A DNA stretch of 64,000 nt from an uncultured Planctomycetota bacterium (GTDB taxonomy: Bacteria > Planctomycetota > Planctomycetia > Gemmatales > Gemmataceae). The notes below the pieces were generated by a model. The model was not told the DNA's origin. It ran no database searches and saw only the letters and a list, made by a program, of their open reading frames with translations. Each line of letters starts with the position of its first letter. Position 1 is the stretch's first letter. The position numbers were made by a program, and so were the translations under genes. Of this stretch, positions 1 to 61,337 are shown piece by piece. The DNA lies in the NCBI GenBank assembly GCA_963849325.1, contig CAWKHF010000002.1:224001-288000 (forward strand). Direction: 5' to 3'.

Positions 1-957
1 CGAGAACTGGCCGCCTTCGACCACGACCTGCGCCATCACCGTCGCATCAAGTACAAACTGACCGACCTGATCAAGTGTCTGCCGGAGACGGGCCATCCGA
101 TGGACGCCCTGCAAGCGGGCGTTGCCGCCCTGGGCATGTTCTACCCCGCCCGCGATGTTCACAACGAGCAGAGCAACTGGGATTCGGTCGTGCGCCTGAT
201 CGCCAAGCTGCCGACCATCACCGCCGCCTTCCACCGCCTCCGCCACGGCGACGCGCCGATCGGGCCGCGCGACGACCTCGGCCACGCTTCCAACTTCTAT
301 TACATGCTCACCGAACAGGAGCCATCGCCGGCCGTCGCCAAGGTGCTCGACGCCTGCCTGATCCTGCACGCCGAGCACACCATGAACGCCTCGACGTTCA
401 GCGGCCGCGTCACCGGCTCGACCCTGGCCAATCCGTACACGGTCATTAGCTCCGCCATCGGCACGCTGACCGGCCCGCTGCACGGCGGCGCCAACGAGCA
501 GGTGCTGGACATGCTCGACGAGATTGGCTCGCCGGACAACGTCCGTGCCTGGCTCGACGACGCCATCGCCCACAAAAAGAAGATCATGGGCCTGGGCCAT
601 CGCGTCTACAAGGTCAAGGACCCGCGCGCCACGGTGCTGCAAGAACTGGCGGAGAACGCCTTTGTCGAGACCGGCCGGCCGAAGCTCTATCAGCTGGCCC
701 TGGAAATGGAGCGCGTCGCCGCCGGCGTCCTGGGACCGAAAGGCATTTATCCCAACGTCGATTTCTACTCCGGCATCGTCTACCTGAGCATAGGAATCCC
801 GCGCGACCTGTTCACGCCGATCTTCGCCATTGCCCGCGTCGCCGGTTGGCTGGCGCACTGGCTGGAACAGTTGAAGAACAACCGCATCTTCCGGCCGGAG
901 CAGATCTACGTCGGCAAGCACGACGTACCGTATGAGCCGCTTGAGCAACGGCCGTGA
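1..957 (+). CDS. gltA: Citrate synthase (5' end lies upstream of the window)
   Basis: LHAEHTMNASTF, GPLHGGANE, GLGHRVYK..DPR and YPNVDFYSG motifs; frame is open back to the window start. Confidence 0.95.
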   Translation, partial: RELAAFDHDLRHHRRIKYKLTDLIKCLPETGHPMDALQAGVAALGMFYPARDVHNEQSNWDSVVRLIAKLPTITAAFHRLRHGDAPIGPRDDLGHASNFYYMLTEQEPSPAVAKVLDACLILHAEHTMNASTFSGRVTGSTLANPYTVISSAIGTLTGPLHGGANEQVLDMLDEIGSPDNVRAWLDDAIAHKKKIMGLGHRVYKVKDPRATVLQELAENAFVETGRPKLYQLALEMERVAAGVLGPKGIYPNVDFYSGIVYLSIGIPRDLFTPIFAIARVAGWLAHWLEQLKNNRIFRPEQIYVGKHDVPYEPLEQRP

Positions 958-1047
958 TAACCTGCTTCACGCATATCGAGCCAGGAGGCCGCGAGGCGAA
1001 CGAGGATCGCCTGAAAGTGATCCCCGTGCCTGGAGCATCATGTCTCC

Positions 1048-1131
1048 TTTTGACCACGGATAACACAGATAAAACACCAGAAGCGTTCGGGTTTTCTTTA
1101 TCCGTGGTATCCGTGGTATCCGTGGTTCAAA
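1048..1131. repeat. Imperfect inverted repeat of 9-nt units (ACCACGGAT/ACACAGAT ... ATCCGTGGT x3)
   Basis: Seen directly; a related copy lies at 51266-51345. Confidence 0.8.
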
Positions 1132-1279
1132 ATGCATTGGGCCGGGCGAGTCGCCGGTTTCTCGCCCTTGACGAACGCCAACGCGAGCTGTAGCGTACAA
1201 AATCGAACACGCCTTCCGGCCGTGAACGACACCAGGCATCGCCCCTAGCTCCGGTCCCGTCGAAAACCGGGCCGCCTGG

Positions 1280-1308
1280 TTGACGTTGGAGAGATGCCCT
1301 GTTCTAAT
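1280..1308 (+). promoter_or_regulatory. Putative sigma70 promoter of the protease cluster
   Basis: TTGACG-17 nt-TCTAAT with an extended -10 TGn; a weaker TTGACG-17-TAGCGT candidate lies at 1168-1196. Confidence 0.5.
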
Positions 1309-1378
1309 AGCGCACCAATCTCTTTACTCCGTGGCCCTTCCCCGGTGGAGGGCCGCTCCTGCTCCGGGAGTCACCGCC

Positions 1379-3645
1379 ATGAAGGACATTCCCCGTCTGC
1401 TGATCGCCGTCACGCTGGCCATCGTCGCCGCGGCGCCGCTTCAAGCCGCACCAATCCGGCACGCTCTGCTGGTCGGCTGTACCAAATACGACAACCTCGA
1501 TCCGGCCAACTACCTGGTAGGCCCGGCCAACGACGTGCTCCTCTTCCGCGACGTGCTGACGAATTATTACGACTTCCGCGACAAGGACATCGTCATCCTC
1601 TCGGAAGCGGCCGGCAAGGAGAAGGGCGAGCGCTTCCGGCCGACGCGGGCCAACATCCAGCGCGAGTTCGCCGAGTTGGCCCGCAAGGCCGGCAAGGATG
1701 ATCGCGTGGTCATTCTCCTGGGCGGACACGGCAGCCAGCAGCCCGACAGCAAGCCCGATGACCCCGAGCGCTTCGAGCCGGACGGCAAGGAAGAGATCTT
1801 TTTGCCCGCCGACGTCGGCCAGTGGGACGGCGTCTCGCGCGTCAAGAATGCCATCGTCGATTACGAGTTCCGCGATTGGCTCAAAGACATCCGCAAGACC
1901 GGAGCGTCGCTGTGGGTGATCGTCGATGCCTGCCATTCGTCGTCCGTGCTGCGTTCGCCGACGGAGAAGCCGCGCGAGGTGGAGGGGAACAAATTGGTGC
2001 CTGCCGACGTGCTGCGGCAGGCCGAGGACAAGGCTCGCAAACGCCAGGAGGGCCGCGAACGCGGCAAGAAACGGCTGACGTTCAAGCTCCCTCCTCAGGA
2101 GCCGGACCTCGTGGCCATCTACGCCGCGCAGTCCACCGAACCGACCGTCGAGCTGGTCCTGCCGGAAGAAGGGCCGGAGCGGAGTCGCAAACCGCAAGGT
2201 TTACTTACTTACACTCTCTGTAAAGTCCTTATTGAGGCGAAGGAAGCCAAGGCTTCGCTCACCTACCATCAGCTGCTTCAACGTATCCACGACCACTACA
2301 AGGGTTGGAACCGGACCTATCCCACGCCGCTCATCGAGGGCAAGGACCGCAACCGCGAGATTTTCGGCGAAGTGCGGAGGGGGGAGCGAACGCCGGCGAT
2401 ACACTGATCCGCCTCGATCAAGACGGACAAGGCGACTGGTTCATTGACCAGGGTTCGCTGCACGGCCTCACCGTGGGCAGCGTCTTGAAGGTCTACCCTC
2501 CCGCCGGAGGGGCCGATTCCGAGAAGGCCATCGGTCATGTCGAAATCCTGGAGGATGATTTCGGTGCTCTGCGGGCGCGGGTCAAGCCGTGCGCGTTCGC
2601 CCGGATGCCGGAACCGAAGGGGAACGAGTTACCCAAGCGCGGCCGCTGTGAGCTGGTCTTCGTCAATTATGGCGAGCAGCGGTTGGCGGTGGCCGTCGAT
2701 CCGCGGACGCTCAAGGACGAGGAAGTGCCCAAGGACAAGCGGCAGCCCCTGCTCGACATGCTGAAAAAACTCGAGGGCGAAGAAGGTTCACTCGTCAAGT
2801 CTGCCTCCCCCGCCGAGGCGCAGTGGCTGTTGCGCTTCGATTCGCTGCAATCAGGCAAACTATATCTGACCCCGGCATCCGGCCTGTCGTTGCCGGACGG
2901 GTCCGGCAAGTCGGCGGCGCGAGTCGGAGCGTCGCCGAGCCTGCCGCCGCTGTTCGGCCCTGTCCCCGCCGGGAGGGAGAGTTGGCTGCGGGAGCGCCTG
3001 GCCCGCATCGCTCGTGTGCGGAACCTGTTGGCCATCGCCAATCGGCCGGCCCGCGCTCACAGGGATTCTCCCCTCGACGTGAAGTGCAAGTTGGAGGTGG
3101 TACGGTTCCGCAACGACGACGACGAAACCGGCGCGCCGCTGACGCGCGGCCCCGAAGGTGCCGTCCTCCATGACCGAGACAAGGTTGGCATCGTGGTGAC
3201 CAACGAGGGCCGCGAGCCGATCGACGTCACCATCCTTTTGCTCGACAACGAGTATGGCATCAGTTCGATTTTCCCGCAGGCGGCTGATACGGACAACCGC
3301 GTTCAACCCAACAAACCACTCCCCTTTCGCACGACGCTGCGCACCAAGACCGGGGGAGTCGAACATGTCCTGGTCGTTGCGGTCAAGGGCGAGAGTGTCC
3401 GGGAGTATGCCCAGTTTAGCTTCCTGGCTCAACCGAGCATCGAGAAGGCCACCCGCGAAATGGCGAGCGTTTCCCGGGGAACGCGGGAAAGGAGTCTGGA
3501 ATCGTCCCTGGGCAAGCTCCTGCTGGGCGCGGCTTACGGTCGGGGCAAGCAGAGGGGCATGGAGATGACGGCGGCGAAGGAGTTTGCCTTCCAGCTATTC
3601 TCCTACGAGGCCATGCCGACGCGGTGCCCGACCGGCAAGAAGTAA
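1379..3645 (+). CDS. Exported caspase-like peptidase (C14) with C-terminal DUF4384-like domain, ~755 aa; one frameshift at the G-run near 2380
   Basis: Signal peptide MKDIPRLLIAVTLAIVAAAPLQA; ALLVGC..Y, L.GPANDV, LGGHGSQ (His) and IVDACHS (Cys); continues in ORF 2305-3645 (IDQGSLHGLTVGS; VGIVVTNEGREPIDVTILLLD..YGISSIFP). Confidence 0.85.
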
Positions 3646-3695
3646 ACGCAAAGGTTTGTCACCCAATGAAGTCTTTTTCTTCGAGGAGCAACGCG

Positions 3696-5651
3696 ATGAG
3701 GTATCGTCGAGTGGGGAGCGTCCTGGCGGGGATGGCCGCCTTATCCGCCCTGATGTGGCTGACTGCGATCTCCGCCCCGGCCGAGGGACGCAAGGACATC
3801 GAGGCGAAAAAAGCGGCGACGCGGGCCGCCCCGGAGGACGCCCTGCGAGCGCTGACGGCCTTCCGTCCCGCCGCCGCCTCGGCCGACCGCGGCGAACCGA
3901 TCCCGCAAACCATCGCCACGCCGTACACCAGCGCCTACAAAGTCCTCCACCTGGAGTTCAAGAACGCCGACTCGTGTGAGCGCTTCAAGGCCGACGGCGC
4001 TTACGTCTTCAACCGTTTCGGCCGTTTCGCCGACCTGTTCATCGACGCCGACAAGAACCTGGCCGACGTGCTGTTCAAGGACAAGAACGCCGGCATCGTC
4101 TGGTTCGACTTCTCGACGACGGCCATCGCGCCGCCGCCGCCGCCGGCCCGCAAGGACAAGGAGAACGTCCGCGCCCTCGAGGGCGTCCTTCGCGGCGGCG
4201 CCGGCGCGCTGACCGGCAAGGGCGTCCTCGTCGCCATCATCGACACCGGCATCGACTTCCATCACCCCGACTTCATCGACTACGACGCCGACGGTAAACC
4301 GACCTCGCGCCTGCTCGCCTTCTGGGACACCGCCAGCGACGCCTACGCCGATCAGATCGGCAGTCCGGGGCCGGTTCGCTATCCCAACGGCGCCTCGGTC
4401 GGCACGGTCTTCTCGCGCGCGGACCTGACGACCGAGCTGCGTTCGGGCAAGCCGCGCATCCACGTCTGGGACATCGACGGCCACGGCACCGCCTGCGCCA
4501 GCATCGCGGCCGGCAACGGCAACGCCCTGGAAAAGAAGCGTTACGCCGGCGTCGCTCCGCAGGCCGACCTCATCGCCGTCCGCATCCAGGATCGCGGGCC
4601 TGGACTGGAGAACTTCTATCTGCTCAACGCCATCTGCGCCTGGGTTAATGACCTGGCCGCCAAGGAAGGCAAGCCGGCGGTCCTGTCGTGCAGCTTTGGC
4701 GGCCACGTCGGCGGTCACGACGGCTACCGCATCGATGAGCGCCAGCTGAACGCTCGCTTTCCCAACACCCTCCGCGGCCGGGCCATCTGCATCGCCGGCG
4801 GCAACGAGGGCGCCGACCGCATTCACGCTGCCGTCTCGTTCGGTCCAGACGACAAGGGCACTCTGAAATGGGACTCTTATCGCGGCGGCACCCTCGACAT
4901 CTACACGGACGCCGAGAACAAGACGGACGTCGAGGTCGAGGGCGTCAGCGACAAGCAGGTCGTCAAGTTCTTGCACGGGTCTGACCGGCAAGGTGGTGCT
5001 GTACGTGCGGGTGCCGGCCGGCCGGGGCGAGCTGCGCCTGATGAGCAAGGCCAACAAGAAGCTCAGCGCCGACGCCTACATTCCGACGAGCCACTATCCC
5101 GGCGACGGCTTCGACGATTCGTGCCGGGTGCCGGGCAAGCAAATCGGCACGCCGGCGACGACCGGCCAGGCCATCACCGTGGGCAGCTACGACTTCGACA
5201 ACCACTTCGAGCTGCAGGGCAAGCCGGTCTTCTTCAAGGCCGAGGACAGCAAGGGCCAGCTGACTGCGCATGACGCTCGGGCGCCCTGTCGGGCTACTCC
5301 AATCCGGGACCGAGCCGCATCGGCGACGTGGTCAAGCCGGACCTGGTAGCGCCGGGGCAATACTGGACGGCCAGCGCCGCTCTGAACACACGGGCCATCC
5401 GCGACACGTCGGGCGGCTATCGGCTGTTCAACGGCACCAGCGCCGCGACGCCGTACACCGCCGGCGTGGTGGCCCTGCTGATGCAGAAGAAGCCGTCAAT
5501 CACGGTGGGCGAGATCAAGGACTTGATCCGCAACCACGCCGACAAGGAGGACGATCACGTCAGCCGCTCCGGCCGCACGCCGAACCCGGAGTGGGGCTAC
5601 GGCAAGCTCAACCGCAAGGCCGTGGCCGCTATGCTGGAGGCGATTCGCTAG
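3696..5651 (+). CDS. Exported S8 subtilase, CspA-like, ~650 aa; frameshifts near 4980 and 5270-5282
   Basis: GAGGAG RBS; signal peptide; catalytic VAIIDTGID (D), DGHGTACASIAAG (H), GGNEG (N), SGYSNPGP..KPDLVAPG, FNGTSAATP (S); C-terminal WGYGKLN. Confidence 0.88.
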
Positions 5652-5750
5652 GAACTGTCGGGGCCGGCTGGGTGAGCGACGGACAGCACCGTCGCTGACG
5701 CTGCCGGCTCCGACCCCTCCTCCGCCCTTGGCCGCATCAGGAGGACAGGC

Positions 5751-8700
5751 ATGTCTTCGTATACGCATTCCAGGCTGTTGTGCTTTTGTCTTCTCAGTGG
5801 GTTAACGTGTCTTGTTTTCTACGCGCCGTCTCCTGCCGGCGATCCACCGCCACTGACAGGAGTGCAAAAGGAGAAGCTGAAGGAGTTCAACCGCCTCGCT
5901 GGGGAGGCGGTTCGGCTTCGCCGCGAGGGCAAGGCGGCTGAGGTCGTCGCCACCATCGAGAAGATGCTGACAATCGAGCGACAGGGATTCGGCGAGGTGC
6001 GAGAGAGCGGAGTTTCATGGCTGGAATGGCTGGCCGGAATGCATGAGCAGGGTGAGGACTTCACCGCCGCCCGCAAGGCGCGGCAGGAAGTGCTGGCGAT
6101 CCGTACCAAGCTCCACGGTGAGGAGCACTGGAGGGTCCTTGATGCCCGGCTGGAGTTGGCGGACGTTGATCTGCTGGAAAAGCTGGACCGCGAGCAGCGG
6201 CGACAGTTGAGCGAGGCCGACACCCTGCTGCGGCAAGTGAGTCAACTCTACCAGCGAGGCAAGGCGCGAGAGGCTTTACCCCTGGCGGAGAAGGCCCTGC
6301 GTATCCGCCGGAGTGTTTACCGAACACAACACCCTCGTTATGCCGCGGCGTTAGTTTGGCTCGGTCTCCTGAATTCCTCCCAGGGTCACTACGCCCGGGC
6401 CGAGTCGCTGTACCGCCAGGCGCTGGCCATCCGCAAGCAGGCGCTAGGCGAGAAGCACCCCGACTACGCCCTCAGCCTGAACAACCTGGCCCAGCTGTAC
6501 TTCTACCAGGGCGAGTATGCCAAGGCCGAGTTGCTGTACCGCCAGGCGGTGGCCATCCGCAAGCAGGCGTTGGGCGAGAAACACCCCCACTACGCTACCA
6601 GCCTGGATAACCTGGCCGCGCTGTACGACTCCCAGGGTCACTACGCCCGGGCCGAGCCGCTGTACCGCCAGGCGCTGGAGATCAAGAAGCAGGTGTTGGG
6701 AGAGAAGCACTCCGACTACGCCTTCAGCCTCAACAACTTGGCCCATCTGTACTATTCCCAGGGCGATTACGCCCGAGCCGAGCCGCTGTACCGCCAGGCA
6801 TCCGAGATCTGGAAGCAGGCGCTGGGCGAGAAGCACTCTCTCTATGCCACCAGCCTGAACAACCTGGCCGCGCTGTACTCCTCCCAGGGCGACTACTCCC
6901 AGGCCGAACCGCTGTTCCGCCAGGCGCTGGAGATCAAGAAGCAGGCGCTGGGCGAGAAGCATCCCGACTACGCCACCAGTCTGAACAACCTGGCCCAGCT
7001 GTACAAGTACCAGGGCGACTACGCCAGGGCCGAGCCGCTGTACCGACAGGCGTCGGAAGTCTTGAAGCAGGGGATGGGCGCCAAGCACCCCAACTACGCC
7101 ACCAGTCTGAACAGCCTGGCCCATCTGTACTATTCCCAGGGCGACTACGCCAAGGCCGAGCCGCTGTATCGCCAGGCGCTGGACATCCGCAAGCAGGCGC
7201 TGGCGCGAAGCACCCCGACTACGCCCTCAGCCTGAACAACCTGGCCTTGCTGTACAAATCCCAGGGCGACTACGCCCAGGCCGAGCCGCTATACCAGAAG
7301 GCATCGGAGATCTACGAGCAGGCACTGGGCGCGAAGCACCCCGACTACGCCACCAGTCTGAACAACCTGGCCGCGCTGTACGACTCCCAGGGCGACTACG
7401 CCCAGGCCGAGTCGCTGTACCGCCAGGCGTCGGAAACCTGGAAGCAGGCGCTGGGAGAGAAGCACCCCGACTACGCCCGAAGTCTCAACAACCTGGCCCA
7501 TCTGTACTCTTCCCAAGGCGACTACGCCAAGGCCGAGCCGCTGTACCGGAAGGCATCCGAGATCTGGAAGCAGGCGTTGGCGCGAAGCACCCCGACTACG
7601 CCACCAGTCTGAACAACCTGGCCCAGCTGTACCACTCCCAGGGCAACTACGCCCAGGCCGAGCCACTATGCTTGCAATCCCTTGGCATCTCCCGCGATAA
7701 CCTCGAACTGGCCGCCGCCGTGCAATCCCAACGTCAGCAACTGGCCATGCTGGAAAACCTGCGTTTCCGCCTCGACGCTTACCTATCCCTGGCAGCCGAG
7801 GCCAAGAAACCCGCCGACAAGCTGTATGAGCAGTCCCTGACCTGGAAGGGCATCGTCGGACTGCGGCAACGCAACCAGCGAATGGCCCGACGCCATCCCG
7901 AGTTGGCCGCCGACTTCGCCGAACTCAATCGCGTCGCCGCACGCCTGGCTACCCTCGCCCTCAGCATGCCCGATCCCAAACGTCTCGACGTACACCGCCA
8001 GCAGATGCAGGATCTGACCGAGGACAAGGAACGACTGGAAGGCCGGCTGGCCCGCCGCAGTGCTGATTTCCGTCAGGAGAAAGAACGAAGCCGGCTGACG
8101 CCGGCGCAACTGCAAGCCGCACTGCCCAGGGACGCCGCCCTCCTCGACTTCCTCGAATATACCCACTTCACTCCCTCCGCCCAGAAGAAGGGACAACTGA
8201 ATCGAGAGCGCCGGTTCCTCGCTTTCGTCGTCCGCCCCGATACGCTGGTGCGGGTGGACCTCGGCCCGGTCAAGCCCATCCAGGAAGCGATCGAGCGCTG
8301 GCGGCCGGCCCTGCAACGCCGCTTCCGCACCGAAGGCGATGACGCCCTCGGCGCCGCCGTCCGCCAACTCGTCTGGAACAAGCTGGAGAATCACTTGCAG
8401 GGAGCGCAAGTGGTGCTGGTCTCTCCCGATGGCGCCCTGGCCCGCGTGCCCTTCGCCGCCCTGCCCGGCAGCAAAAAAGACTCCTTCCTGCTGGAAGAGT
8501 TGGCCATCGCTGTCGTGCCCGTGCCGCAACTCTTGCCGCAACTGCTGGCACCACGCCCGGACGAGGGCAAGACCGAGCCGTCGCTGTTGCTGGTCGGCGA
8601 TGTCAGCTACGATGCCGGCGTTGGCGCGGCGGTCGCCGACAGCCGCTCGGCTCCCCGCGCCGGCACGCTGTTGAGCTGGAAGGCGTTGGAGAACACGCGC

Positions 8701-9423
8701 GCCGAGGTGGCGGCGGTCAAGGACAGCTTCCAGCGTCGCTTTCGCCGCGGCGTCGTCACCGACCTGCGCGAAGACGAGGCCAGCGAGGCCGAGGTACGCA
8801 AGGAAGCGCCGAAGAATCGTTATCTGCACTTCGCCACGCACGGCTTCTTCGCCCCCAAGGAGCTGCGCTCGGCCCTCAGCGCTGCCTCGCGCGGCAAGGA
8901 GTCTGACTCCGCCAACCTGTTCGGTGGTCGCAAGGACATGGCCGGCTTCCATCCGGGTCTGCTGTCGGGTCTGGTGCTGGCGGGGGCCAATCGGCCGGCG
9001 GAGGTGGGCAAGGACGATGGCATCCTGACGGCGTTGGAAGTGGAATCGCTGGACTTGGCCGGCGTCGAGTTGGCGGTGCTGAGCGCCTGTGAGACGGGCC
9101 TGGGCGAGCAAGCGGGCGGCGAGGGCTTGCTGGGATTGCAACGCGCCTTCCAGGTGGCCGGAGCGCGCGGCGTAGTAGCGGGTCTGTGGCAGGTCGATGA
9201 CAAGGCCACGCGCGATCTGACGATGCGCTTCTACGAGAACCTGTGGAAAAAGAAGCTGCCCCGCCTGGAGGCGTTACGACAGGCGCAGTTGTGGATGCTC
9301 AAGGAAGGCATCAGCCGGAGCATGGTGAACGTGAAGGTGCCGAAAGAACGGCTGGGCAAGGACGACGGACGCTTGCCGCCTTATTACTGGGCCGCCTTCG
9401 CCCTCTCCGGCGACTGGCGCTAA
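5751..9423 (+). CDS. Exported TPR-repeat / CHAT (caspase HetF-associated) protease, ~1220 aa; 1-bp deletions near 7204 and 7581
   Basis: AGGAGG RBS; hydrophobic N-terminus; 42-aa HPDYATSLNNLA repeats; CHAT motifs VSPDGAL, YLHFATHGFF (His), VLSACETGLG (Cys), LWQVDD, PYYWAAF. Confidence 0.92.
6330..7670 (+). repeat. 11 tandem 126-bp repeats encoding kinesin-light-chain-type TPRs
   Basis: His codons at 6330, 6456, 6582, 6708, 6834, 6960, 7086, 7211, 7337, 7463, 7588; spacing is 126 bp except for two 125-bp gaps at the frameshifts. Confidence 0.95.
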
Positions 9424-9432
9424 TCCCGCCAT

Positions 9433-11076
9433 TTAGACCAGGTAATCGCCCAACAGCGTCCGGGCGATCAGGAAGTAGATGACGATGCCCGTCACATCGA
9501 CGGCGGTGGCCACGAAGGGGCTGGAGGCGTAGCCGGGATCGCGGCCCAGACGTTTGAGCAGCAACGGCAGCATCGAGCCGACCAGGGTGCCCCACAAGCA
9601 GATCGACGCCACCGCCAGGGCGATGACCAGCGACAGCCGATAGCGGTCCACCGGATCGTGGATCACCCGGCAATTGCCCGGAAACTTGTAGATCTCGAAA
9701 TGATCCGGATCATGGACATCGGGGACGATCTGATAATTCTCCTTGCGAGGTAGGCCAATTTTCGTCAGATGTTGGTCCACCATGCTCTGTTGGTAGCCAG
9801 GCGGGACCAGGACGACCGTGAAAGGCTCCTTTTCCGTCCACTCCGTCACCGGGTATTCGTCGAGTCGCGTCCCCCGGGGCACCTTGACCTGGAACGGTTC
9901 GGGGCGCGAGGCGGCGCTGCTGCGGACGCTGTCGGGAGTCAGCGAGGCGCGGCCGAAGCCGATCAGGCCCAGCGTCGCCCCCAGGATCAGCCCCATGCCG
10001 ATCTCGTGACGCAGCACGCGCAGCCAGTCCTTGCCCCGGACCTGGCCCAGGGCCATGGCGCGCGTGATTAGGGTGGCGGCCTGCGAGCCGGAGTTGCCGC
10101 CCGTGGAGATGCACAGCGGCACAAACAGGCTGAGCACGACCACAGCGGCGATGGCGTCCTCGAAGTAGGACAGGGCCGTGAATGTGAACAGCTCGGCGAC
10201 GAACAGGATGGCCAGCCACGAGGCCCGCTTGCGCCAGATCAGAAAGAAGCTCGCTTCCAGGTAGTTCTCTTCCAGCGGATTGACCGCGCCCATGCGGTGA
10301 ACGTCCTCGGTCGCCTCGGACACGACCACGTCGATCACGTCGTCGTAGGTGACGATGCCGACGAGGCGCTTGTCGTCGTCGAGGACGGGGATGGCCAGCA
10401 GGTCGTAGTGCGTCATGTCCTGGGCGACCTTCTCGCGGTCGTCGCTGACGCGCACGGTGATCGGCTGGGCGTCCATCAATTCGTTGACCAGCGCCCGCCG
10501 CGGCGCCAGGATCAGCTCGCGCAGCGTCACCACGCCGAGCAAGCGTCGCTGCTCATCGACGACGTAGACGTAATAGATGGTCTCGCTGTTCGGCGCCTGC
10601 AAGCGGAGACGGTCCAGCGCCTGTTCGACGCTGATGTTGGCCGGCAGCCAGGCGTAGTCGGTGGTCATCAAGGCGCCGGCGGTGTTCTCCTCATACTTGA
10701 CCAGCGTGGCGATGTCGCGGCGGTCGGCCTCATCGACCAGGCGCAGCAGGCTCTCGACGACCTTCGGCTCCAGATGGCGCAGCAGGTCGGCGCGATCGTC
10801 GTGCGACATCTGCTCGATCAGGCGAGCCATGTGCGGTCGGCCCGTGCCCTCGACCAACTGTTCCTGCCACTCCAGCGGGAAGTACACGAAGATCGTGGCC
10901 TGATTGGCGATCGACGTGGTATTGAGGAAACGCCAAACGTCTTCGACCGCGAAGTGATCGGCCAGCGACTCGGCGACCGTGGCCGGGTGCAGCGTCTCGC
11001 AGAACGCCTCCATCGCCGCGGTGTCTTCTTTCTCCAGCAGCAGACGGGCTTCCGGGGTGAACAGGGGATGCGACAT
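9433..11076 (-). CDS. mgtE: Magnesium transporter MgtE
   Basis: N-domain, CBS pair (AGALMTTDY, YYVYVVD), TGGNSGSQAATL, SSPFVATAVDVTG. Confidence 0.95.
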   Translation of the reverse strand: MSHPLFTPEARLLLEKEDTAAMEAFCETLHPATVAESLADHFAVEDVWRFLNTTSIANQATIFVYFPLEWQEQLVEGTGRPHMARLIEQMSHDDRADLLRHLEPKVVESLLRLVDEADRRDIATLVKYEENTAGALMTTDYAWLPANISVEQALDRLRLQAPNSETIYYVYVVDEQRRLLGVVTLRELILAPRRALVNELMDAQPITVRVSDDREKVAQDMTHYDLLAIPVLDDDKRLVGIVTYDDVIDVVVSEATEDVHRMGAVNPLEENYLEASFFLIWRKRASWLAILFVAELFTFTALSYFEDAIAAVVVLSLFVPLCISTGGNSGSQAATLITRAMALGQVRGKDWLRVLRHEIGMGLILGATLGLIGFGRASLTPDSVRSSAASRPEPFQVKVPRGTRLDEYPVTEWTEKEPFTVVLVPPGYQQSMVDQHLTKIGLPRKENYQIVPDVHDPDHFEIYKFPGNCRVIHDPVDRYRLSLVIALAVASICLWGTLVGSMLPLLLKRLGRDPGYASSPFVATAVDVTGIVIYFLIARTLLGDYLV

Positions 11077-11230: not shown

Positions 11231-12092
11231 CTAAACCCTATCGATCAGGAGATTATCGATCAGGCGCGTGCCGCCGAAACGGACGGCAAGGGCCAGCAAA
11301 ATCGGTCGGCCGGCGCCGAGCCGGGCGAGAGGTTCCAACGAGTCGGCATCCACGACAGCAGCATAATCGAGGACGGCACCGCGAGCGGACTGGACGTGCT
11401 CCGCCATCACCCGGCGCAGCACGGCGGCGTCTTGCTCTCCCGCGTCGATCCGCTGTCGCGCTTCCGTGAGCGCGCCGTGAAGGACCGTGGCCTGACGGCG
11501 CTCGTCCGCTTCAAGATACTGGTTCCGCGAACTGAGAGCTAGACCATCCGCTTCACGGACGATTGGACAGACCCGGACCTCGACCGGGACGTTCAGGTCG
11601 TGCGCCATTTGCCGAATGAGGCGCGCTTGCTGGGCGTCCTTCTGACCGAAATAGGCACGATCCGGCTGGACCAGGTTGAAGAGCTTGAGGACGACGGTAG
11701 CCACGCCGCGGAAGTGCCCCGGCCGTGATGCGCCGCACAGCACGTCCTGCCAGCCGGTCACCTCGACGAAGGTGCGGTAGCCCGGCGGATACAGCACGGT
11801 CGGCTCCGGATGGAAGACGAGATCGACGCTCGACTCGGCGGCACAGTTCCAGGTCGCGCTCCAGCGGACGGGGGTATTGCTGCAAATCCTCGTTCGGGCC
11901 GAACTGCGTTGGGTTGACGAAGATGGAGACGACGACGTAAGCCGTCTCGGCACGGGCTGCCTCGATCAGGCTGAGGTGTCCCGCGTGCAGGGCGCCCATC
12001 GTCGGCACCAAGCCAATCGTCAGAACGCGCCGGCGAGCATTGGCGACGGCGACGCGCAGGGTAGGAATGTCCGTCACCACGGTAGGTTTCAT
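11231..12092 (-). CDS. panC: Pantoate-beta-alanine ligase; frameshift near 11835
   Basis: [56 protein letters not shown] split over two frames. Confidence 0.93.
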
Positions 12093-12676
12093 GGGGCGTT
12101 CTCCGGGATGTCCGCAGGCTGCGGCCTGCCGAGGACGGACAGCAGAAGGTTGAGGTACGAACGCGGCTGGAGATCGGTCAGGCCGAGGGAGGCAGTGGTG
12201 TCCGCCAACACGATCCGGGCTTTGTCCACCCGTTCCTCCGCAGCGAGGATCTCGACCTCGGCGAAGCGGCCCAGGTGCTCGACTTCGTCCAGGCACACCG
12301 TCAGGGCGAAACCGTCTCGCTCCAGTTGGTACATCCGACGATGCTTGCGGACCACGGCGACGGGACGATAGCCGAGGTGAACGAGGAGCTGCATGAACTG
12401 CTCCGTCGCCTCGTCGCCATCGCGGAGCGGGATTTCCAACTCGGTGCGGACCTTGACGGTGCCGGCGCTTTTGGGGCCTTTGTAGGTCAGGAAGTTCGCC
12501 GCGCCGACCCGACGCAGACGGAACGCCTCATCGGTGCGTGCGAAATCGCGGTCCGGCGCGTTGAAGTAATGGTCCGCCTCCGTGTGCGCCTCGCCCGGCT
12601 GTGCGCCCCATTCGGCCAGGCGACGTTCGAGGACGGCGAAGTCGGCGTATGCGAATTTTTGTTCGATTTCGAGCAT
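12089..12676 (-). CDS. CYTH-family (class IV adenylate cyclase-like) triphosphatase
   Basis: N-terminal ExExK (LEIEQKF), LTYKGP, KHRRMY, CLDEV..LG.FAEVE; stop overlaps the panC start. Confidence 0.9.
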
Positions 12677-24375: not shown

Positions 24376-26021
24376 TCAGGCGGTTCCGACCTTCGCCTTC
24401 TGCTCGCCGGGCGGCACGTCGTCGGAATCGGGATCGAACCACGATTCCTGGAACTCGATGCGCTGGTGCTTCCGCATGGCGTGGTTGGCGGTCAGGGCGA
24501 TGATGGCATCGGCCATGGCGACCTTGCCGGGGCAGCGTGGCAGACGGCGGTCCTTCTCGTTGGCCTGGTTCCACAGGCGGACGCAGTAGGCGAAGTCCTC
24601 CATCTCCTCGCGGTAGCCGCGGCTGACCGGGCCGCCGCCCGCTCCCGCCGGGCCGGCCGCTGCCGCGGTCGGCGACACCGTCGGGCCGCCCCACGTCGAG
24701 CCGGACTCCAGCACCGGCTTGTCTTTGCCGCCGGCGCTGACGCCGACCTCCGTGGCCCGCGGCTGCGTCTTGACCTTGCCCGGCTCCAGCTCCGGGAACA
24801 CCATCACCGTCGATTCCTTCTCGACGATCATGGTGCCGCGGTCGCCCGTGACGCATTCGCCGTAGTTCTCGAACTGGTTCGTGCTGATCGAGGAATAGGT
24901 GACGACGACGACATCGTGCTTGTCCCGGGCGTGGTTCTTGCCGGGGAACTCGTAGGTGGCGAAGACGTGGTCGTCAATGTCGCGGTCGTTGCGGCCGGGT
25001 CCGAAGAACGAGCGCGTGCCGACGCCGGAGACGGCCAGCGGATGGACGTGGCCCAGGAAGATGCTGCAAGCGTCGAGTTGATGGCTGCCCAGTTCGGCCA
25101 TCAGGCCGCCGCCCGTCGCCTGGTAGAGCCGCCAGCGGATCAGTTGCTCGACGTTGTCGAAGCCGTACTTCTTGAGCATGTCCTTCTTGTCGTGCAGGGC
25201 GTCGTAATCCAGGTGCGTGATCGGCGGGAACCAGCCGTCGCGGAAGGTGGGCTGCGCCACGTCCTTGACCAGTCTCCATCTTGGGATCGGCGTGGAACGG
25301 CCAGGTGAAATTGCGGTGCCACAGGGCGCGGATGTGCTTGATGTCGCCCAGCACGCCGGCGTTGACGACCTCCGTGGCGTGGGCGTACAGCATACTGTAA
25401 TGGCGCTGGTGGCCGACGGCCAACAGGCTGTTGCAGTCCTTGGCCGTGCGGATCATCTGCTTGCACTGGGCGATGTTCCAGGCCATCAGCTTCTCGGTCA
25501 GCACGTGGATCGGCTTGCCGCGCTCCTTGCCGATCTTCATGGCGTCGATGGCCGCCTTGGCGTGCATGACCAGCGGCAGGGCGATGACGACGGCTTCGAT
25601 GTCCTTGTTCTTGCGCAATTCCTCCATCAACCCTTCGTAGGTGTCAAACTTCTTGATCTTTTCGGCGTCGTTTGCCGTAGACCTTGTTGAAGCCCTTGCG
25701 GAGCGCGACCTTGGGGTCGCCCTCGAAGATGCGCGTCATGTTCGAGGGGCGGATGTCGCAGACGGCGACGAACTGGAGGTACTCGGGGTTGTGTTCGCCG
25801 ACGAGGACGCCGCCCTCGTCGCCGCCGCCGATGAGGGCCGCCTTGACCGGCTTGCCCTCCATGCCCTTGTAGCCGAAGTAAACGGCCGGCGAGACGACGG
25901 CCACGCTCGCCCCCGCCACCGCCAAACTCTTCATGAAGCCGCGCCGCGTCAGGCCGTCAGCCGTGTGCGCGAAGTTCGCCGTGCCGGTCGCGCGTTGTTC
26001 GGGGGTCAGGTCGATCGCCAT
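24376..26021 (-). CDS. Tat-exported Gfo/Idh/MocA oxidoreductase; frameshifts near 25660 and 25270
   Basis: TRRGFMK twin-arginine motif, [25 protein letters not shown]...[14 protein letters not shown]. Confidence 0.88.
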
Positions 26022-29513: not shown

Positions 29514-30075
29514 GCCAAACCACTCCCGCGCCGTCCAAGCACGGCGCCGCGAAAAGGTGCCGGGGAGACATCCCTGTGTAATACCTTCCCGGAGGGTCCG
29601 TTCCAGGGAGTGTTACCGCATCGCCCCTCGCATTCACTGTGGATGCCGTGTTAGGGGAGCACGGACGGAGTACGACAAAATGTCCATTCTTCCACGAAGA
29701 GGGAGGATGGCCTTAGCGGAAAACAGGGCTGATTCTCAGGAGCACGATTCGTTCAACGCAGGACGAGTTCGGGAGGCGAACTCTTGCTGTGGGGTTTTGC
29801 CGTAAGGCGTCTTACCCTCAGGCTGGCTTGATTTTAAAGAGATGCGGCGTGAATGTCAACAAGAAAAACCTTGATTCGCCGCGAAAAACACAGGCGGGGC
29901 CGTGGCCGAGACGTTGCCGATGGCAGGAACGGAACCTCTTTCCGACTTTGTGAAAACTTACACGAATTTCAGATTGACTTTCCTCTCCGGGTCCAGAAAA
30001 TACCCCCGCACAGGCAAGGAAGGCCGGAGGGAGAGGTTTTTCGGGGTCCGGCGTGGCCGCCCTGGAGGACCGTTG

Positions 30076-30318
30076 ATGTTCCCGGAGATGCCCGACCGCA
30101 AGGAAATGGGGCGCTATCTCGCCCTCAGTCAGATCGGCCTGGAGATGGTCGTGCCGATCGTCGTCGGCCTGGTGGTGGATCACTACCTCGGTTGGACGCC
30201 GTGGGCGTCCGTGGCCGGCGCCGTGCTGGGGATGTGCGGCGGACTGGTGCATCTGGTGCATTTGTTGAACAAGATGGACGCGAAGGATTCCTCGCCGTCC
30301 GACCGGGAGTCGCGGTGA
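30076..30318 (+). CDS. AtpZ/AtpI-family (ATPase gene 1) protein
   Basis: GGAGG RBS; two TM helices with the G..VD..LG.TPW motif; first gene of the atp operon. Confidence 0.85.
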   Translation: MFPEMPDRKEMGRYLALSQIGLEMVVPIVVGLVVDHYLGWTPWASVAGAVLGMCGGLVHLVHLLNKMDAKDSSPSDRESR

Positions 30319-30731
30319 TTGGGCGTTTGTTGTTCCTGACTGGGGGTTGTGCCGCCTTTGGCCTGCTCGTTGGGCTGCCGGCCCGTCATCTCGGCGGCGG
30401 CGATTCGGCCCTCGTCTTCATCGCCACGGCCCTGCTTCTGTGCCTGGTGCCCGCTGTCGTCACGCTCTTCTGGGGCGAGCGGGCGCTGCACCAGAGCGCC
30501 GACAAGCAGCTGGTCCTGGTGCTGGGCGGGACCGGCGTCCGCATGGCGTTCGTCCTGTTGGCCGGCTGGACGCTCTACCAGTGTGTTCCCTACTATCAGC
30601 AGCAATCCAGCTTCTTGATCTGGTTGGCCGTTTGTTACCTGTTCACCCTGGCCCTGGACATGACGCTGCTGCTGGCGGGGCGTCCCGAGGGGGGGCCGGA
30701 AACTTCCGCTTCGCGGTCCACGATTCAGTGA
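30315..30731 (+). CDS. ATP synthase I-like membrane protein
   Basis: Four hydrophobic helices; GTG start overlaps the upstream stop; lies just before atpB. Confidence 0.7.
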   Translation: MIGRLLFLTGGCAAFGLLVGLPARHLGGGDSALVFIATALLLCLVPAVVTLFWGERALHQSADKQLVLVLGGTGVRMAFVLLAGWTLYQCVPYYQQQSSFLIWLAVCYLFTLALDMTLLLAGRPEGGPETSASRSTIQ

Positions 30732-30739
30732 GTGTAGAC

Positions 30740-31748
30740 ATGGCCCAGCACGCGGCCCACGAACCGCATCCGTTCGAGCACGTGATGGACTCCCACAACT
30801 GGGAGTTCTTCAACGCGGTGTTCGGCCCGCCGGTCGAATGGCACCTGCCCGGCTTCAACATCGACATCGGTTCCTTCCACCACCGCTTCCAGCTCACCAA
30901 GTTCATGGTGCTGGAGCTGGTCGCGGCCATCCTGATCCTGTTGATTTACGTCCCCCTGGCTCGCCGCTCGCGCAACGGCGAGCTGCCCAAAGGGGGATGG
31001 TGGAACGCCTTCGAGTCGCTGTTGACCTTCATTCGCAACGAGGTCGCCAAGCCCAACCTCGGCGAACACGACGCGGACAGGTACGTCCCCTATCTGTGGA
31101 CGCTGTTCTTGTTTTTGCTGTTCTGCAACCTGCTCGGCATGTTTCCGTTCCTCGGTTCGCCGACGGCGAGCATCTGGGTAACGGGAGGCGCTGGCCTGCA
31201 CCGCCTTCGTCATGCTGCACGGGGCGGCCATCGTGAAGATGGGCTTCGAGTACGGCCACGGCGGTGGGCACCATGATGGACACGATCACCATGAGGGGCC
31301 CGGACATCATCTCGGCCACGGACCCACCCCCAGTCCACTCGTGGACGGTCTGCGGAAGGTTCCGTTCCTTGGCCCGCTGCTGGCCGGGGTCGTCCTCTAC
31401 GCCAAGGCGTTGTGGCCGCACATCGAGGTGCCTTACGTCGGCTGGTTCTTCAGCCTCACCATCTTCTGCATCGAGTTGGTGAGCACCGTCATCAAGAGCG
31501 GCGTCTTGGCCGTGCGTCTGTTCGCCAATATGTTCGCCGGGCATACGGTGCTGGCGGTGATCCTGCTGTTCATTTACTCGGCGGCCAACGCCGGCAACGG
31601 CTGGCTACTGGGCGGTGTGTCGATTGCCAGCGTGCTGGGCGTGGTGGCCCTGAGTCTGCTGGAACTGTTCGTCGCCTTCTTGCAGGCGTACATTTTCGTC
31701 TTCCTGACCGCGCTGTTCATGGGCATGTCGCTGCACCCCGAACATTGA
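30740..31748 (+). CDS. atpB: ATP synthase Fo subunit a; frameshift near 31190
   Basis: NLLGMFP, IELVS..IK..VLAVRLFANMFAGH, LELFVAFLQAYIF. Confidence 0.93.
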
Positions 31749-31814
31749 CGGTCGCTTGCGGATGCGTTCCCGGACGGTTGTGACCTGAGTTGACACAAGG
31801 GAGTTAAATTGTCC

Positions 31815-32141
31815 ATGAAAGTCCTGAAACTGTTCCTCATGGTGGTGGGCGCCCTGTTGTTGCTGGCGGCGCCGGCGATGGCCCAGCAGCCGCCGACGGT
31901 GAACTCTTTGACGCTGTCCGGCCGCGGCGTCGGCGCCGGCCTGGGCGCCGCCCTGACGATCATCGGTGCCGGCTGGGGCTTCGGCCGCATCGGCGCCGCC
32001 GCCCTGGAGAGCATGGCGCGGCAGCCGGAGATCGCCGGTCGCATTCAGACGGCCATGATCGTCATCGCCGCCCTTCTCGAAGGCGCAACTTTCTTCGCCC
32101 TGATCGTCTGCATCCTCATGGCCGGCGGCGCGCAGTTTTAA
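31815..32141 (+). CDS. atpE: ATP synthase Fo subunit c with N-terminal extension
   Basis: GAGWGFG, ESMARQPE loop, ALLEG carboxylate. Confidence 0.95.
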   Translation: MKVLKLFLMVVGALLLLAAPAMAQQPPTVNSLTLSGRGVGAGLGAALTIIGAGWGFGRIGAAALESMARQPEIAGRIQTAMIVIAALLEGATFFALIVCILMAGGAQF

Positions 32142-32158
32142 GGGGTGTGATCACCATC

Positions 32159-32215
32159 CACGAGCCCGGAGCGCTAGCGACGGGTCTCCCCCGTCGCTAG
32201 CGCTCCGGGCTCGTG
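32159..32215. repeat. REP-like palindrome (AGCCCGGAGCGCTAGCGACGGG type) between atpE and atpF
   Basis: Long perfect stem; related to 44069-44123. Confidence 0.88.
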
Positions 32216-32250
32216 AGGACGACCGTTTCGCCTGATGGGACGAGGTAGCC

Positions 32251-32943
32251 ATGCGTCATGGTTGGTTGCTGATGGGAATCGGCTTGCTGGCGTTGTTCCT
32301 GTACGCGCCGGCCGTGGTCGGGGCGGACAAGAAGCACACACCCCAACGAGTCAAGACGGCCGAGGATAGGTTCGAGGAGAGGAACCAGGCAGAAATCGAG
32401 GAGGCGGCCGGCGAAGTCAAACGCGACCTGTTCGCCTGGGCGATGGACCTGGGCATCTGGACGTTGGTCATCTTTCTGCTGCTGCTCTTCGTCCTGGGCA
32501 AGTTTGCCTGGAAGCCGATGCTGCAAGGACTGGAGCACCGCGAACGGGCCATCCACGCGGCGTTGCACGAGGCCCAGCAGGCCCGCGACGAAGGGGCGCG
32601 GCTCCGCGCGCAACTGGAAGAACAGATGCGCAAGGCCCACGATCAGGCCCGCGAGATGCTCGACGAAGCTCGCCGCGCCGCCGAGCGGACCACGGCCGAG
32701 ATGACCGCCGCCGCCCAAAAGAAGTTGCAGGCGGAGCACGAACGTCAGCAGCGTGAGATGACCCTGCAATACGACCAGGCGCGGCGCGACATTCAAATGC
32801 AGGTGGCGCAGCTGGCGACCTTGGTTGCCGGCAAGGTGATCCGCCGCCAGGTCAACTCCGACGATCATCGGCAGCTGGTGGACGAGGCGTTGGCTGAGTT
32901 GGGACAGGCCGGCAACGGCCGGCAATCGAAAACGCTCGTTTAG
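32251..32943 (+). CDS. atpF: ATP synthase Fo subunit b with N-terminal extension
   Basis: IWTLVIFLLLLFVLGKFAWKPML..L..RE followed by a coiled coil; operon position. Confidence 0.92.
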   Translation: MRHGWLLMGIGLLALFLYAPAVVGADKKHTPQRVKTAEDRFEERNQAEIEEAAGEVKRDLFAWAMDLGIWTLVIFLLLLFVLGKFAWKPMLQGLEHRERAIHAALHEAQQARDEGARLRAQLEEQMRKAHDQAREMLDEARRAAERTTAEMTAAAQKKLQAEHERQQREMTLQYDQARRDIQMQVAQLATLVAGKVIRRQVNSDDHRQLVDEALAELGQAGNGRQSKTLV

Positions 32944-32990
32944 CCGCGACGCGCAGCGGAGCGCGCTCCGCTGCGCGTCGCGGCTAAACG
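32937..32990. repeat. REP-like palindrome, family A (loop-less perfect palindrome), overlapping the atpF stop
   Basis: 54-bp perfect palindrome; its TAG is the atpF stop codon. Confidence 0.92.
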
Positions 32991-33015
32991 AACTGGAAAC
33001 GACGAACGAACCATC

Positions 33016-33621
33016 ATGACCGAAACCGTCCAGGTCCATCACGCGACCGTCTTCGACGACGCCACCCGGCACATCGCCCGCATCTACGCCGAGGCGCTCC
33101 TGGACGCCGCCGACAAGCGCCAGCAGACCGCCGAGGTGCTGGAGCAGCTGGAAGAACTGGTCCGAGACGTCCTTAATCGGGACTCGGCCTTCGCGGTCTT
33201 CCTTGCCAGCGCGGTCGTCTGCCGCGAACACAAGCGCGAGGCGCTGCGCCGCGCCTTCGAGGGCAAGGTCAACGAAGTCCTGTACAATTTCCTGCTTGTG
33301 CTCAACGACCACGACCGTCTGGACGTGATCCGCGAGGTAGCGATCACGCTGCGCGACATCTACGAGCACCGGGCCGGCCGCATCCACGTCGAGGTCCGCG
33401 CCGCCGTGCCCCTGGCCGACGAGCAGCGCGAGCGGCTGCGGCACGAACTGCGGACCAAGTTCGGCCGCGAGCCGATTCTGTCGCTCCGCGTCGATCCCGA
33501 CCTGCTGGGCGGCCTGGTGGTGCGCGTGGACGATTGGGTCTACGACGGCAGCGTGCGGGCCCGCCTGGAGCGAATTCGGAATCAACTCATCGAGAAAGGC
33601 AGCCATGTCCAATCGCATTAA
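33016..33621 (+). CDS. atpH: ATP synthase F1 delta subunit
   Basis: [29 protein letters not shown]. Confidence 0.95.
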
Positions 33622-35326: not shown

Positions 35327-35334
35327 CGATCTGA

Positions 35335-35393
35335 CGAGCGGGGGGCGTCAGCCCCCTGTTGCGAAGAAACAGGGGGCTGACGCCCCCCGCTCG
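35335..35393. repeat. Palindrome, family D (CGAGCGGGGGGCGTCAGCCCCCTG), between atpA and atpG
   Basis: Perfect inverted repeat; a solo half copy lies at 60815-60838. Confidence 0.88.
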
Positions 35394-35423
35394 CCAAATT
35401 CCAGGTGAGATAGTCGAGACATC

Positions 35424-36303
35424 ATGGCCAACACCCGAGCGCTCGTCAAACGCCGCAAGGCGGTTCGCAACATCAAGAAGATCACGCGCACCATGGAGCT
35501 GATCGCCACGGCGCGCTTCAAGAAGGCGCTGGACCGCGCCACCGAGGCCGAGGCGTACACGCGCAAAATCACCGAGCTGGCCGCCGACCTCAGCGCCTCG
35601 GCGACCAACGTCTCGCATCCGCTGCTGCAACAGCGTGAGGACGTTCGCAACACGGTGCTTCTGGTGCTGTGCTCCAATCGCGGCCTGTGCGGCGGCTACA
35701 ACGCCAGCATTCTCCGCGAGGCCAACCAGCGCATCCGCCACATCCGAACCGAAAACGCAACGCTGCACCTGGAGCTATCCGGCCAGCGGCGCCATCACCT
35801 ACTTCCGCTACCAGGGCGTCAAGGCCGAGCACACCTACACGCAATTCGAGGAGAAGCCGCGCTTCGACGAGGTGGAAGAGATCGCCAACCGCTACATCGA
35901 AGGCTTCATCAGCGGAAAAATCGACCGCGTTGAGGTGGCGTACATGAAGTTCCTCAACGCGGCCCGGCAAACGCCCGTCGTCGAGACGCTGTTGCCGCTA
36001 TCGCGGTCAGCCCCCGGCGAAGCGCGTCAACCGGCCCCGCGCCCTGTCGAGTACGAGTTCTTGCCCAGCGCCGCCGACATCTTGCAGGAACTCTTGCCGG
36101 TCTCGTTCAAGGTCCGGCTGTTCAAGTGTTTCCTTGACGCCGCCGTCAGCGAGCAGATTGCCCGCCGCGTCACCATGAAGCAGGCGACCGAGAACGCCGA
36201 CGATATGATTAAGAGCCTGACACGCCTGTACAATCGCGCGCGCCAGGCCCAGATCACCAAGGAAATCGCCGAGGTCATCGGCGGGGCGGCGGCGCTGGAA
36301 TAA
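35424..36303 (+). CDS. atpG: ATP synthase F1 gamma subunit; frameshift near 35785
   Basis: KITRTMELIA, RGLCGGYN, YNRARQAQITKEIAE. Confidence 0.95.
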
Positions 36304-36318
36304 GACAGGGGCGAGAGT

Positions 36319-38473
<2,155 letters not shown>

Positions 38474-48080: not shown

Positions 48081-48131
48081 ACAACCGGCGGAGTTGGAAC
48101 CGCTCATCTATTCTTCCGCGAGGAGATGCTC

Positions 48132-60905: not shown

Positions 60906-60917
60906 GCAGGAGGGTTC

Positions 60918-61325: not shown

Positions 61326-61337
61326 GCAGGACTTGCC

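Follow-up and report, generated by a model that had tools for sequence, protein, structure and literature searches.

Work on bacterial caspase homologues, CHAT proteases and subtilases linked to defence has dealt almost exclusively with sensor-protease-effector systems of the cytoplasm. The closest described case outside the cytoplasm is DdvA of Myxococcus xanthus, a transmembrane anti-sigma factor with a periplasmic part made of tetratricopeptide repeats (TPR) and a CHAT domain (PMC11506125, in part). The analysis presented here concerns a cluster of three protease genes from an uncultured Planctomycetota bacterium of the Gemmataceae (GenBank assembly GCA_963849325.1, contig CAWKHF010000002.1, positions 224,001 to 288,000 of the forward strand). 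This stretch of 64,000 nucleotides was analysed as a whole and is denoted as the window; the cluster occupies its positions 1379 to 9423. The genes code, in this order, for a C14 caspase-like protease (gene 1), an S8 subtilase related to the clostridial Csp proteases (gene 2), and a TPR-CHAT protease (gene 3), all of them with predicted export signals. The linkage of the three families, their Sec, lipoprotein or twin-arginine (Tat) signals, and the lack of an adjacent effector point to a proteolysis that is regulated and takes place in the periplasm or at the cell surface. With about even probability, the cluster represents a conserved and self-contained module, in which two to three exported site-specific proteases act together in the periplasm or cell envelope. 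On the best reading of the loci, TPR-CHAT is the hub and the commonest member of this module, joined by a caspase homologue of the C14-DUF4384 type, by a Csp-like S8 subtilase, or by both.

DdvA and gene 3 have in common a TPR-CHAT part outside the cytoplasm (predicted for gene 3), and for DdvA the sensing of a protein signal and an action through regulated proteolysis have been proposed (PMC11506125, in part). In one relative of the cluster, from a genome of the same genus (G006), the gene of an extracytoplasmic function (ECF) sigma factor adjoins the TPR-CHAT gene. In contrast to DdvA, gene 3 lacks the N-terminal cytoplasmic zinc-binding anti-sigma domain, no sigma factor gene stands next to the window's cluster, and the catalytic dyad is intact and conserved, whereas the site of DdvA is described as incomplete (PMC11506125, in part). 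No C14 or S8 partner is described for DdvA in the parts of that source drawn on here, and DdvA itself was not retrieved among the matches of the CHAT profile at E<=0.01. For both DdvA and the craspases it is stated that CHAT proteases rest inactive until triggered (PMC11506125, in part). Craspase, the type III-E CRISPR complex of Cas7-11 and Csx29, shares the TPR-CHAT architecture, and its Csx29 protease stays inactive until a signal arrives. It differs in being cytoplasmic and RNA-guided, whereas gene 3 has an export signal; no Cas domains were found among the annotated open reading frames (ORFs) of the window.

Protease-activated gasdermin systems were reportedly described by Johnson et al. 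in 2022. In bacteria and fungi, proteases of the S8, CHAT and caspase-like families activate gasdermins (PMC8851545, in part). This mix-and-match repertoire of S8, CHAT and caspase-like proteases, often fused to TPR, WD40 or NLR-type (nucleotide-binding leucine-rich repeat) repeats, resembles the one found here. Those systems are cytoplasmic and encoded beside their gasdermin substrate, whereas in the window no gasdermin gene is adjacent and all parts have export signals. Among solved structures, gene 2 is closest to the proteases CspA, CspB and CspC. These subtilases work outside the cytoplasm, where they activate the zymogen pro-SleC, and keep their prodomain. Phylum and process are different in their case, and the identity to gene 2 is confined to the catalytic core; to our knowledge, Planctomycetota form no spores.

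Prokaryotic metacaspases with N-terminal helices, possibly signal peptides, were suggested in 2012 to be partly extracellular, with 23 operons containing other proteolysis domains (PMC3501461, in part), and the C14+DUF4384 architecture occurs in 23 of 473 cyanobacterial orthocaspases (PMC8283722, in part). Gene 1 resembles these proteins in its C14 p20 domain with a His/Cys dyad, in the signal or transmembrane N-termini seen in known ones, and possibly in the C14+DUF4384 arrangement; it differs in its linkage to TPR-CHAT and Csp-like S8 genes, which is not reported for them in the consulted parts of the two sources (PMC3501461, PMC8283722). Full-text searches of the literature, with subscription-only papers outside their range, yielded no characterised member of the exported C14 subfamily. 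An earlier note on this DNA, made from the sequence alone, had not recognised the arrangement as a described system. This stands for the linked set of C14, Csp-like S8 and TPR-CHAT genes, on which no paper was found in the full-text literature (subscription-only papers and supplements outside), and not for all of its components: a periplasmic TPR-CHAT is known from DdvA (PMC11506125, in part), and metacaspases with signal peptides were noted in 2012 (PMC3501461, in part).

The cluster consists of the following genes, with lengths given as read through the frameshifts treated below:

1379-3645, plus strand: gene 1, C14 caspase-like protease predicted to be exported, about 755 amino acids
3696-5651, plus strand: gene 2, Csp-like S8 subtilase predicted to be exported, about 650 amino acids
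5751-9423, plus strand: gene 3, TPR-CHAT protease predicted to be exported, about 1220 amino acids

The layout agrees with that given in the earlier note. The three genes are co-directional and closely spaced, with spacers of 50 bp (gene 1/gene 2) and 99 bp (gene 2/gene 3), which leave no room for a gasdermin gene between the proteases. Upstream, the citrate synthase gene ends at position 957; downstream, mgtE (9433-11076, minus strand) is convergent. As claimed, no effector gene adjoins the cluster, its neighbours being citrate synthase and mgtE, and none was seen in the inspected loci of relatives. A Shine-Dalgarno-like purine run lies 5-9 nt ahead of each of the three ATG codons, and a scan of the plus strand found no terminator-like sites within the cluster. 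Its base composition (GC content) is similar to that of the surroundings. The source genome comprises 14 contigs and 8.16 Mb with an estimated completeness of 84.7%, and the records of close relatives are titled Gemmataceae or Gemmatales.

A promoter-like sequence ahead of gene 1 had also been reported, and this was not confirmed: a consensus scan of positions 900-9700 gave no site, against 1.0 expected. What had been taken for a promoter is probably a pair of hexamers recognisable by eye, of which the second fails the rule of the scanner:

1280-1310 (hexamers 1280-1308), plus strand: TTGACG, 17 nt, TCTAAT, about 70 nt upstream of gene 1

The same 420-bp intergenic region upstream of gene 1 contains, at 1099-1126, a perfect 9-bp tandem repeat of 3.1 copies.

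Each of the three proteins was assigned to its family by Pfam, and the catalytic residues were found complete in all of them, as had been read before. In gene 1, Peptidase_C14 (PF00656) reaches 71.5 bits over a cut-off of 21.4 (E 1.1e-19). The translation contains the His of the dyad in GGHGS and the Cys in DACHS, and both positions are conserved in an alignment with six relatives. The protein is composed of a putative signal peptide, a p20-type domain, a charged linker rich in Lys and Arg, and a C-terminal region of putative DUF4384 type with a beta-barrel and an immunoglobulin (Ig)-like beta-sandwich; the charged stretch comprises about 60 residues and is located between the catalytic Cys and the second half of the domain. 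Over their entire length, the two pieces of gene 1 can be aligned with intact proteins of 757-836 amino acids encoded in the same genome and in those of relatives. For the intact paralogue in the own genome, the nearest solved structures are metacaspases, which match the p20 part only.

DUF4384 (PF14326) was not confirmed by Pfam in gene 1 itself, where no match is obtained at E<=0.05; the domain is matched at the corresponding place in the paralogue and in relatives. Scores are 27.3 bits in the paralogue (locus L011; cut-off 27), 20.1 bits in locus L014 and 30 bits in locus L153, and the C-terminal region of gene 1 aligns over its full length with proteins that match DUF4384. A model of the C-terminal 415 residues, predicted from an alignment of 53 sequences (predicted local distance difference test, pLDDT, 84.5; predicted template modelling score, pTM, 0.82), shows a small beta-barrel, an alpha/beta unit, a long helix, and the Ig-like beta-sandwich. 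Fold searches with this model returned generic beta-barrel or Ig-like matches only (Foldseek, best E 8e-4; VIA, Z <=9.2), none of which hints at a function.

In gene 2, Peptidase_S8 (PF00082) is found on two pieces with 63.7 and 66.7 bits over a cut-off of 21.8 (E 2.3e-17 and 2.8e-18). Its catalytic set is complete, with Asp in DTGID, His in GHGT, the oxyanion Asn in GGNEG, and Ser in GTSAA. The label "CspA-like" of the earlier note holds at the sequence level as "Csp-like": the top solved relatives are all clostridial Csp germination-specific proteases (E 2.3e-16 for the window's piece, 3.1e-22 for the intact paralogue). In the family alignment, the N-terminal part specific to this S8 family comprises about 170 amino acids and is possibly a prodomain.

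In gene 3, CHAT (PF12770) is matched with 219.5 bits over a cut-off of 24 (E 8.7e-65), together with strong TPR_10/TPR_12 arrays. Its dyad is formed by the His in THGF and the Cys in SACET, and was retained in 49 of 50 aligned CHAT domains of neighbour genes. About 8 residues precede a hydrophobic stretch, a signal peptide or N-terminal anchor, which is followed by about 12 TPR_10/12 units, a helical linker, and the CHAT domain. A profile built from 29 CHAT domains reaches the Csx29 chains of Craspase (E 7e-5 to 3e-4); a single-sequence search (phmmer) of the PDB sequences with the CHAT part of gene 3 gave no match. The TPR array is visible at the DNA level as a tandem repeat:

6377-7664, plus strand: TPR array of gene 3, unit of 126 bp, 10.2 copies, 80% matches

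Five one-base frameshifts split the genes (gene 1 once, genes 2 and 3 twice each). Judged from the direction of the frame change, four are losses and one is a gain of a base:

2376-2387, plus strand: gene 1, one base lost in a run of G
4974-4988, plus strand: gene 2, one base gained
5278-5293, plus strand: gene 2, one base lost
7197-7211, plus strand: gene 3, one G lost relative to the consensus of the 126-bp repeat
7574-7588, plus strand: gene 3, the identical loss at the same repeat position, three units further on

Five other genes of the window are each split in the same manner over two overlapping frames, with the halves of the Pfam model in different frames:

11234-12527, minus strand: panC, profile positions 2-84 and 74-267
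24379-25735, minus strand: GFO/IDH/MocA oxidoreductase gene, two overlapping frames
30269-31745, plus strand: atpB, profile positions 5-94 and 115-216
35409-36300, plus strand: atpG, profile positions 2-121 and 121-285
46712-48454, plus strand: glcD-like gene, two overlapping frames

Since genes for ATP synthase and other housekeeping functions are split likewise, and a live cell needs its ATP synthase subunits, the frameshifts in the protease genes are read as indel errors of the assembly and not as signs of decay; the combination of few contigs (14) and low completeness (84.7%) fits this reading. The three protease genes are thus taken as intact in the organism. Among the public sequencing runs, one run of soil DNA shared 7% of the sampled words, its contigs spanning short stretches and none of the five frameshift sites, and no RNA run matching the cluster was found among those listed.

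All three N-termini look like signal peptides, with a short basic region, a hydrophobic stretch and small residues, in line with what had been proposed from the sequence. Relatives were compared by a hydropathy heuristic of our own, by which an N-terminus counts as signal-peptide-like when its best 12-residue window after the start codon and a basic stretch has a mean Kyte-Doolittle value >=2.0:

C14 relatives with a complete 5' end: 66/78 (80 loci, 2 truncated)
close S8 relatives: 34/35 (36 examined, 1 truncated)
TPR-CHAT neighbours with a readable 5' end: 16/28
cytoplasmic-type control genes of the window: 5/22

Half of the misses among the TPR-CHAT neighbours (6/12) are open frames of <620 amino acids, i.e. 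fragments. Many of the positives carry a lipoprotein-type Cys (lipobox) after the hydrophobic stretch, and alphaproteobacterial relatives of the C14 protein have Tat motifs. As signal-peptide-like, lipobox and twin-arginine N-termini recur in relatives, export looks like a real trait of all three families and not an accident of this copy.

The neighbourhood was compared in loci centred on C14 and on S8 relatives. The C14-centred scan used one genome per species and found 268 relatives, of which 80 loci were fetched (mean flank 13.6 kb per locus, both sides summed). They belong by record title to several families of Planctomycetota, to Acidobacteriota, a Verrucomicrobiales metagenome-assembled genome (MAG), and a Gallionella MAG. 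In 33 of these 80 loci the fetched flank contains a CHAT gene (E<1e-10), and in 15 it lies <=500 bp from the C14 gene on the same strand (11 upstream, 2 downstream, 2 overlapping the match). At locus L073, from Novipirellula sp. SH528, the distance between the C14 and CHAT genes is 3 kb. With about 9 CHAT genes in the 8.16 Mb of the source genome, a stretch of 20 kb taken at random is expected to contain one in about 2% of cases, a baseline that comes from this genome only. Within the source genome, a TPR-CHAT gene is found within 10 kb of three of the four C14-family copies (the window's and two of the three others); the copy number comes from a protein search, as the genome search with PF00656 is lossy and missed the window's own C14 gene. 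The family is patchily distributed, occurring in 7 of 40 relative genomes and in 1 of 10 genomes of the same genus. This one, G006, has the gene order Ser/Thr kinase, C14, ECF sigma factor, TPR-CHAT. A paralogous cluster of the source genome (L011; contig 5, 183465-192613; L011:5465-14614, minus strand) encodes a TPR-CHAT protein of 1170 amino acids, a C14-DUF4384 protein of 757 amino acids, and then a protein of 1263 amino acids with Trypsin_2, HEAT, Peptidase_C14, and FGE-sulfatase domains. Here again a serine protease stands beside the clan-CD pair, an analogy counted in favour of the module.

The S8 subfamily was found at E<=1e-30 in at least 2 of 400 other genomes of the phylum, a floor owing to a stricter first-look filter, and both have a CHAT or TPR-CHAT gene directly downstream. 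A metagenome scan gave 195 S8 relatives, of which 80 loci were fetched, many on short contigs and half of them with more distant subtilases; CHAT is present in 12/80, C14 in 9/80, and both in 4/80. Among close relatives, 8 of 13 have CHAT, C14 or both as partner, the 13 being those with >=2.5 kb on both sides out of 41 loci in which the family-specific N-terminal region is matched as well. The three protease families co-occur far above chance. The full trio recurs in five further loci, in four gene orders overall and at a GC content of 0.48-0.71:

window: C14, S8, CHAT
L046: S8, C14, CHAT
L146: S8, C14, CHAT
L153: S8, C14, CHAT
L124 (GC 0.48): CHAT, S8, C14
L122: C14, WD40-C14, S8, CHAT

Intact orthologues are present, for instance, in L025, L046 and L124. 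An apparent S8-C14 fusion in L153 was rejected, as the S8 match and the long open frame are not in the same frame and no S8 domain is detected by Pfam in the latter. In 16 pair or trio loci no shared fourth gene or effector was found, and the flanks consist of varied housekeeping genes (e.g. GroEL, sigma-70, riboflavin synthase, a major facilitator superfamily transporter). The largest cluster of neighbours at the C14 loci (41 loci) is heterogeneous, with Ser/Thr kinases, WD40 proteins and others joined by single linkage.

Two further kinds of genes accompany some of these loci. A family of about 270 amino acids with a signal peptide and without a Pfam match occurs in 12 of the 80 C14 loci (e.g. 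L024:325-1146) and is absent from the window; in several loci it lies directly upstream of the C14 gene on the same strand (<=500 bp in six), and its beta-rich C-terminal part resembles, by eye only, a pre-peptidase C-terminal (PPC) domain. Large WD40-repeat proteins are encoded in or beside some S8/C14/CHAT clusters (L122:3944-7507, L120:3-7562, L146:1-1173), one of them with a C-terminal C14 domain, which suggests that such repeat-plus-protease proteins are swappable parts of the module.

Linkage that spans phyla and survives changes in gene order usually indicates that genes function jointly. Since the module recurs in many bacteria of soil and water, it suggests an extracytoplasmic protease pathway, and regulated zymogen activation is probably its principle. 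The three enzymes would be made as inactive forms (zymogens), because of the N-terminal region of about 170 amino acids in the S8 protein, the Lys/Arg-rich linker between the halves of the C14 domain, and the resting inactive state of CHAT proteases. One enzyme would cleave the other or others and thereby switch them on, while the TPR array would hold a partner or a protein signal, and the targets finally cut would be proteins of the envelope or periplasm whose genes lie elsewhere in the genome. Mutual activation is proposed because of what the Csp, metacaspase, CHAT, and TPR families do elsewhere: Csp subtilases activate a zymogen outside the cytoplasm, metacaspases need processing, and TPR arrays bind proteins.

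Several observations weigh against the module. Most loci hold a pair and not a trio, which is thus not obligate; of the 80 C14-centred loci, a single one (L046, from a MAG of the Pirellulaceae) contains the S8 subfamily and 47 lack CHAT in the fetched flank (many flanks being short), and 63 of the 80 S8-centred metagenome loci have neither CHAT nor C14. The S8 paralogue of the own genome (contig 12) and the S8 gene of genome G018 likewise have no C14 or CHAT gene within 10 kb. The counts overstate independence a little, since L110/L133 and L120/L121 are identical in match and ORF coordinates and are likely duplicates; in addition, many loci come from related Planctomycetota. The signal-peptide heuristic is home-made and gives about 23% positives among the controls, and repeat-rich exported proteins and proteases are common in such large genomes.

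A bolder form of the module would be a caspase-type proteolytic cascade wholly outside the cytoplasm, spread over at least four phyla. In it, the periplasmic TPR-CHAT protein would capture a protein signal (from phage, a competitor, or envelope damage) and switch on the zymogens of the C14 protease and the Csp-like subtilase, which would cut envelope targets and so lead to lysis, remodelling, or ECF signalling. It is rather unlikely in this full form. The extracytoplasmic cascade put forward in the earlier note is supported in part, by the export signals in all three families and the linkage in many loci; ligand sensing by the TPR array and the order of activation are proposals.

A possible explanation, an unlikely one on balance, is that the genes encode co-regulated but independent exported proteases, active in surface-protein maturation, periplasmic turnover or feeding, which do not activate each other. 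It would account for the housekeeping flanks without a common fourth partner, for pairs being commoner than trios, and for the generic beta-barrel and Ig-like folds at the C-terminus of gene 1, as they occur in many extracytoplasmic proteins. Against it, the linkage persists over phyla and changes in gene order, usually a mark of functional coupling, and the TPR array argues for a protein partner. Furthermore, clan-CD proteases and Csp-type subtilases are narrow processing enzymes and not bulk degraders, which also counts against independent action.

The proteases could also form the periplasmic arm of ECF-sigma or Ser/Thr-kinase signalling, i.e. site-1-like proteases or sensors that cut an anti-sigma factor or a receptor. 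This is improbable: in the window, no sigma factor, anti-sigma factor or kinase gene lies beside the cluster and gene 3, with its about 8 residues before the hydrophobic stretch, has no cytoplasmic anti-sigma domain. The idea draws on the gene order in G006, in which kinase and ECF sigma genes alternate with the protease genes, and on the 80 C14 loci, where ECF sigma factors (about 10), Ser/Thr kinases (about 17), and WD40 proteins (about 17) are found. Ser/Thr kinase and ECF genes are numerous in Planctomycetota, and their frequency at C14 loci may be near chance. Such a role has been proposed for DdvA, which joins a periplasmic TPR-CHAT with ECF sigma control (PMC11506125, in part).

Still less probable is an extracytoplasmic defence or cell-death cascade, in which the TPR array would detect a periplasmic protein of a phage or competitor, with envelope damage as the final outcome. 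The generic "caspase" and "subtilase" models of PADLOC match (E 1.2e-17 and 1.6e-10), the patchy spread, with the C14 family in a single one of 10 genomes of the genus, is as expected of accessory systems, and gasdermins of fungi and bacteria are activated interchangeably by S8 and CHAT proteases (PMC8851545, in part). However, no gasdermin or other effector was found beside any locus inspected, the flanks are housekeeping genes and not defence islands, and the GC content equals that of the surroundings. The gasdermin model PF04598 matched nothing in the genome, in a search that matched no control genome either. Decaying pseudogenes or a chance adjacency, to which the five frameshifts in 8 kb might point, can practically be dismissed, as essential genes of the window are frameshifted likewise, 4 of the 5 changes are single-base losses, three of these in G runs, every catalytic residue is kept, and the linkage recurs widely.

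If the proteases of the module do activate each other, they would constitute a testable bacterial zymogen cascade outside the cell, a counterpart of extracellular zymogen cascades. It would give a function to exported metacaspases, noted in 2012 but never explained, and a context to DdvA, the single solved periplasmic TPR-CHAT. With two to three genes the module is small, and the active-site residues are obvious.

Elsewhere in the window, the following features were observed:

29875-38470, plus strand: operon of the F-type ATP synthase, with the gene of a small ATPase_gene1 protein (PF09527) first, followed by those of subunits a, c, b, delta, alpha, gamma, and beta
46088-46600, plus strand: ORF with a PIN domain, directly upstream of the glcD-like gene
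60810-63233, plus strand: BlaI-type repressor (Penicillinase_R), then a BlaR1-type M56 peptidase sensor, a signalling pair that works by regulated proteolysis

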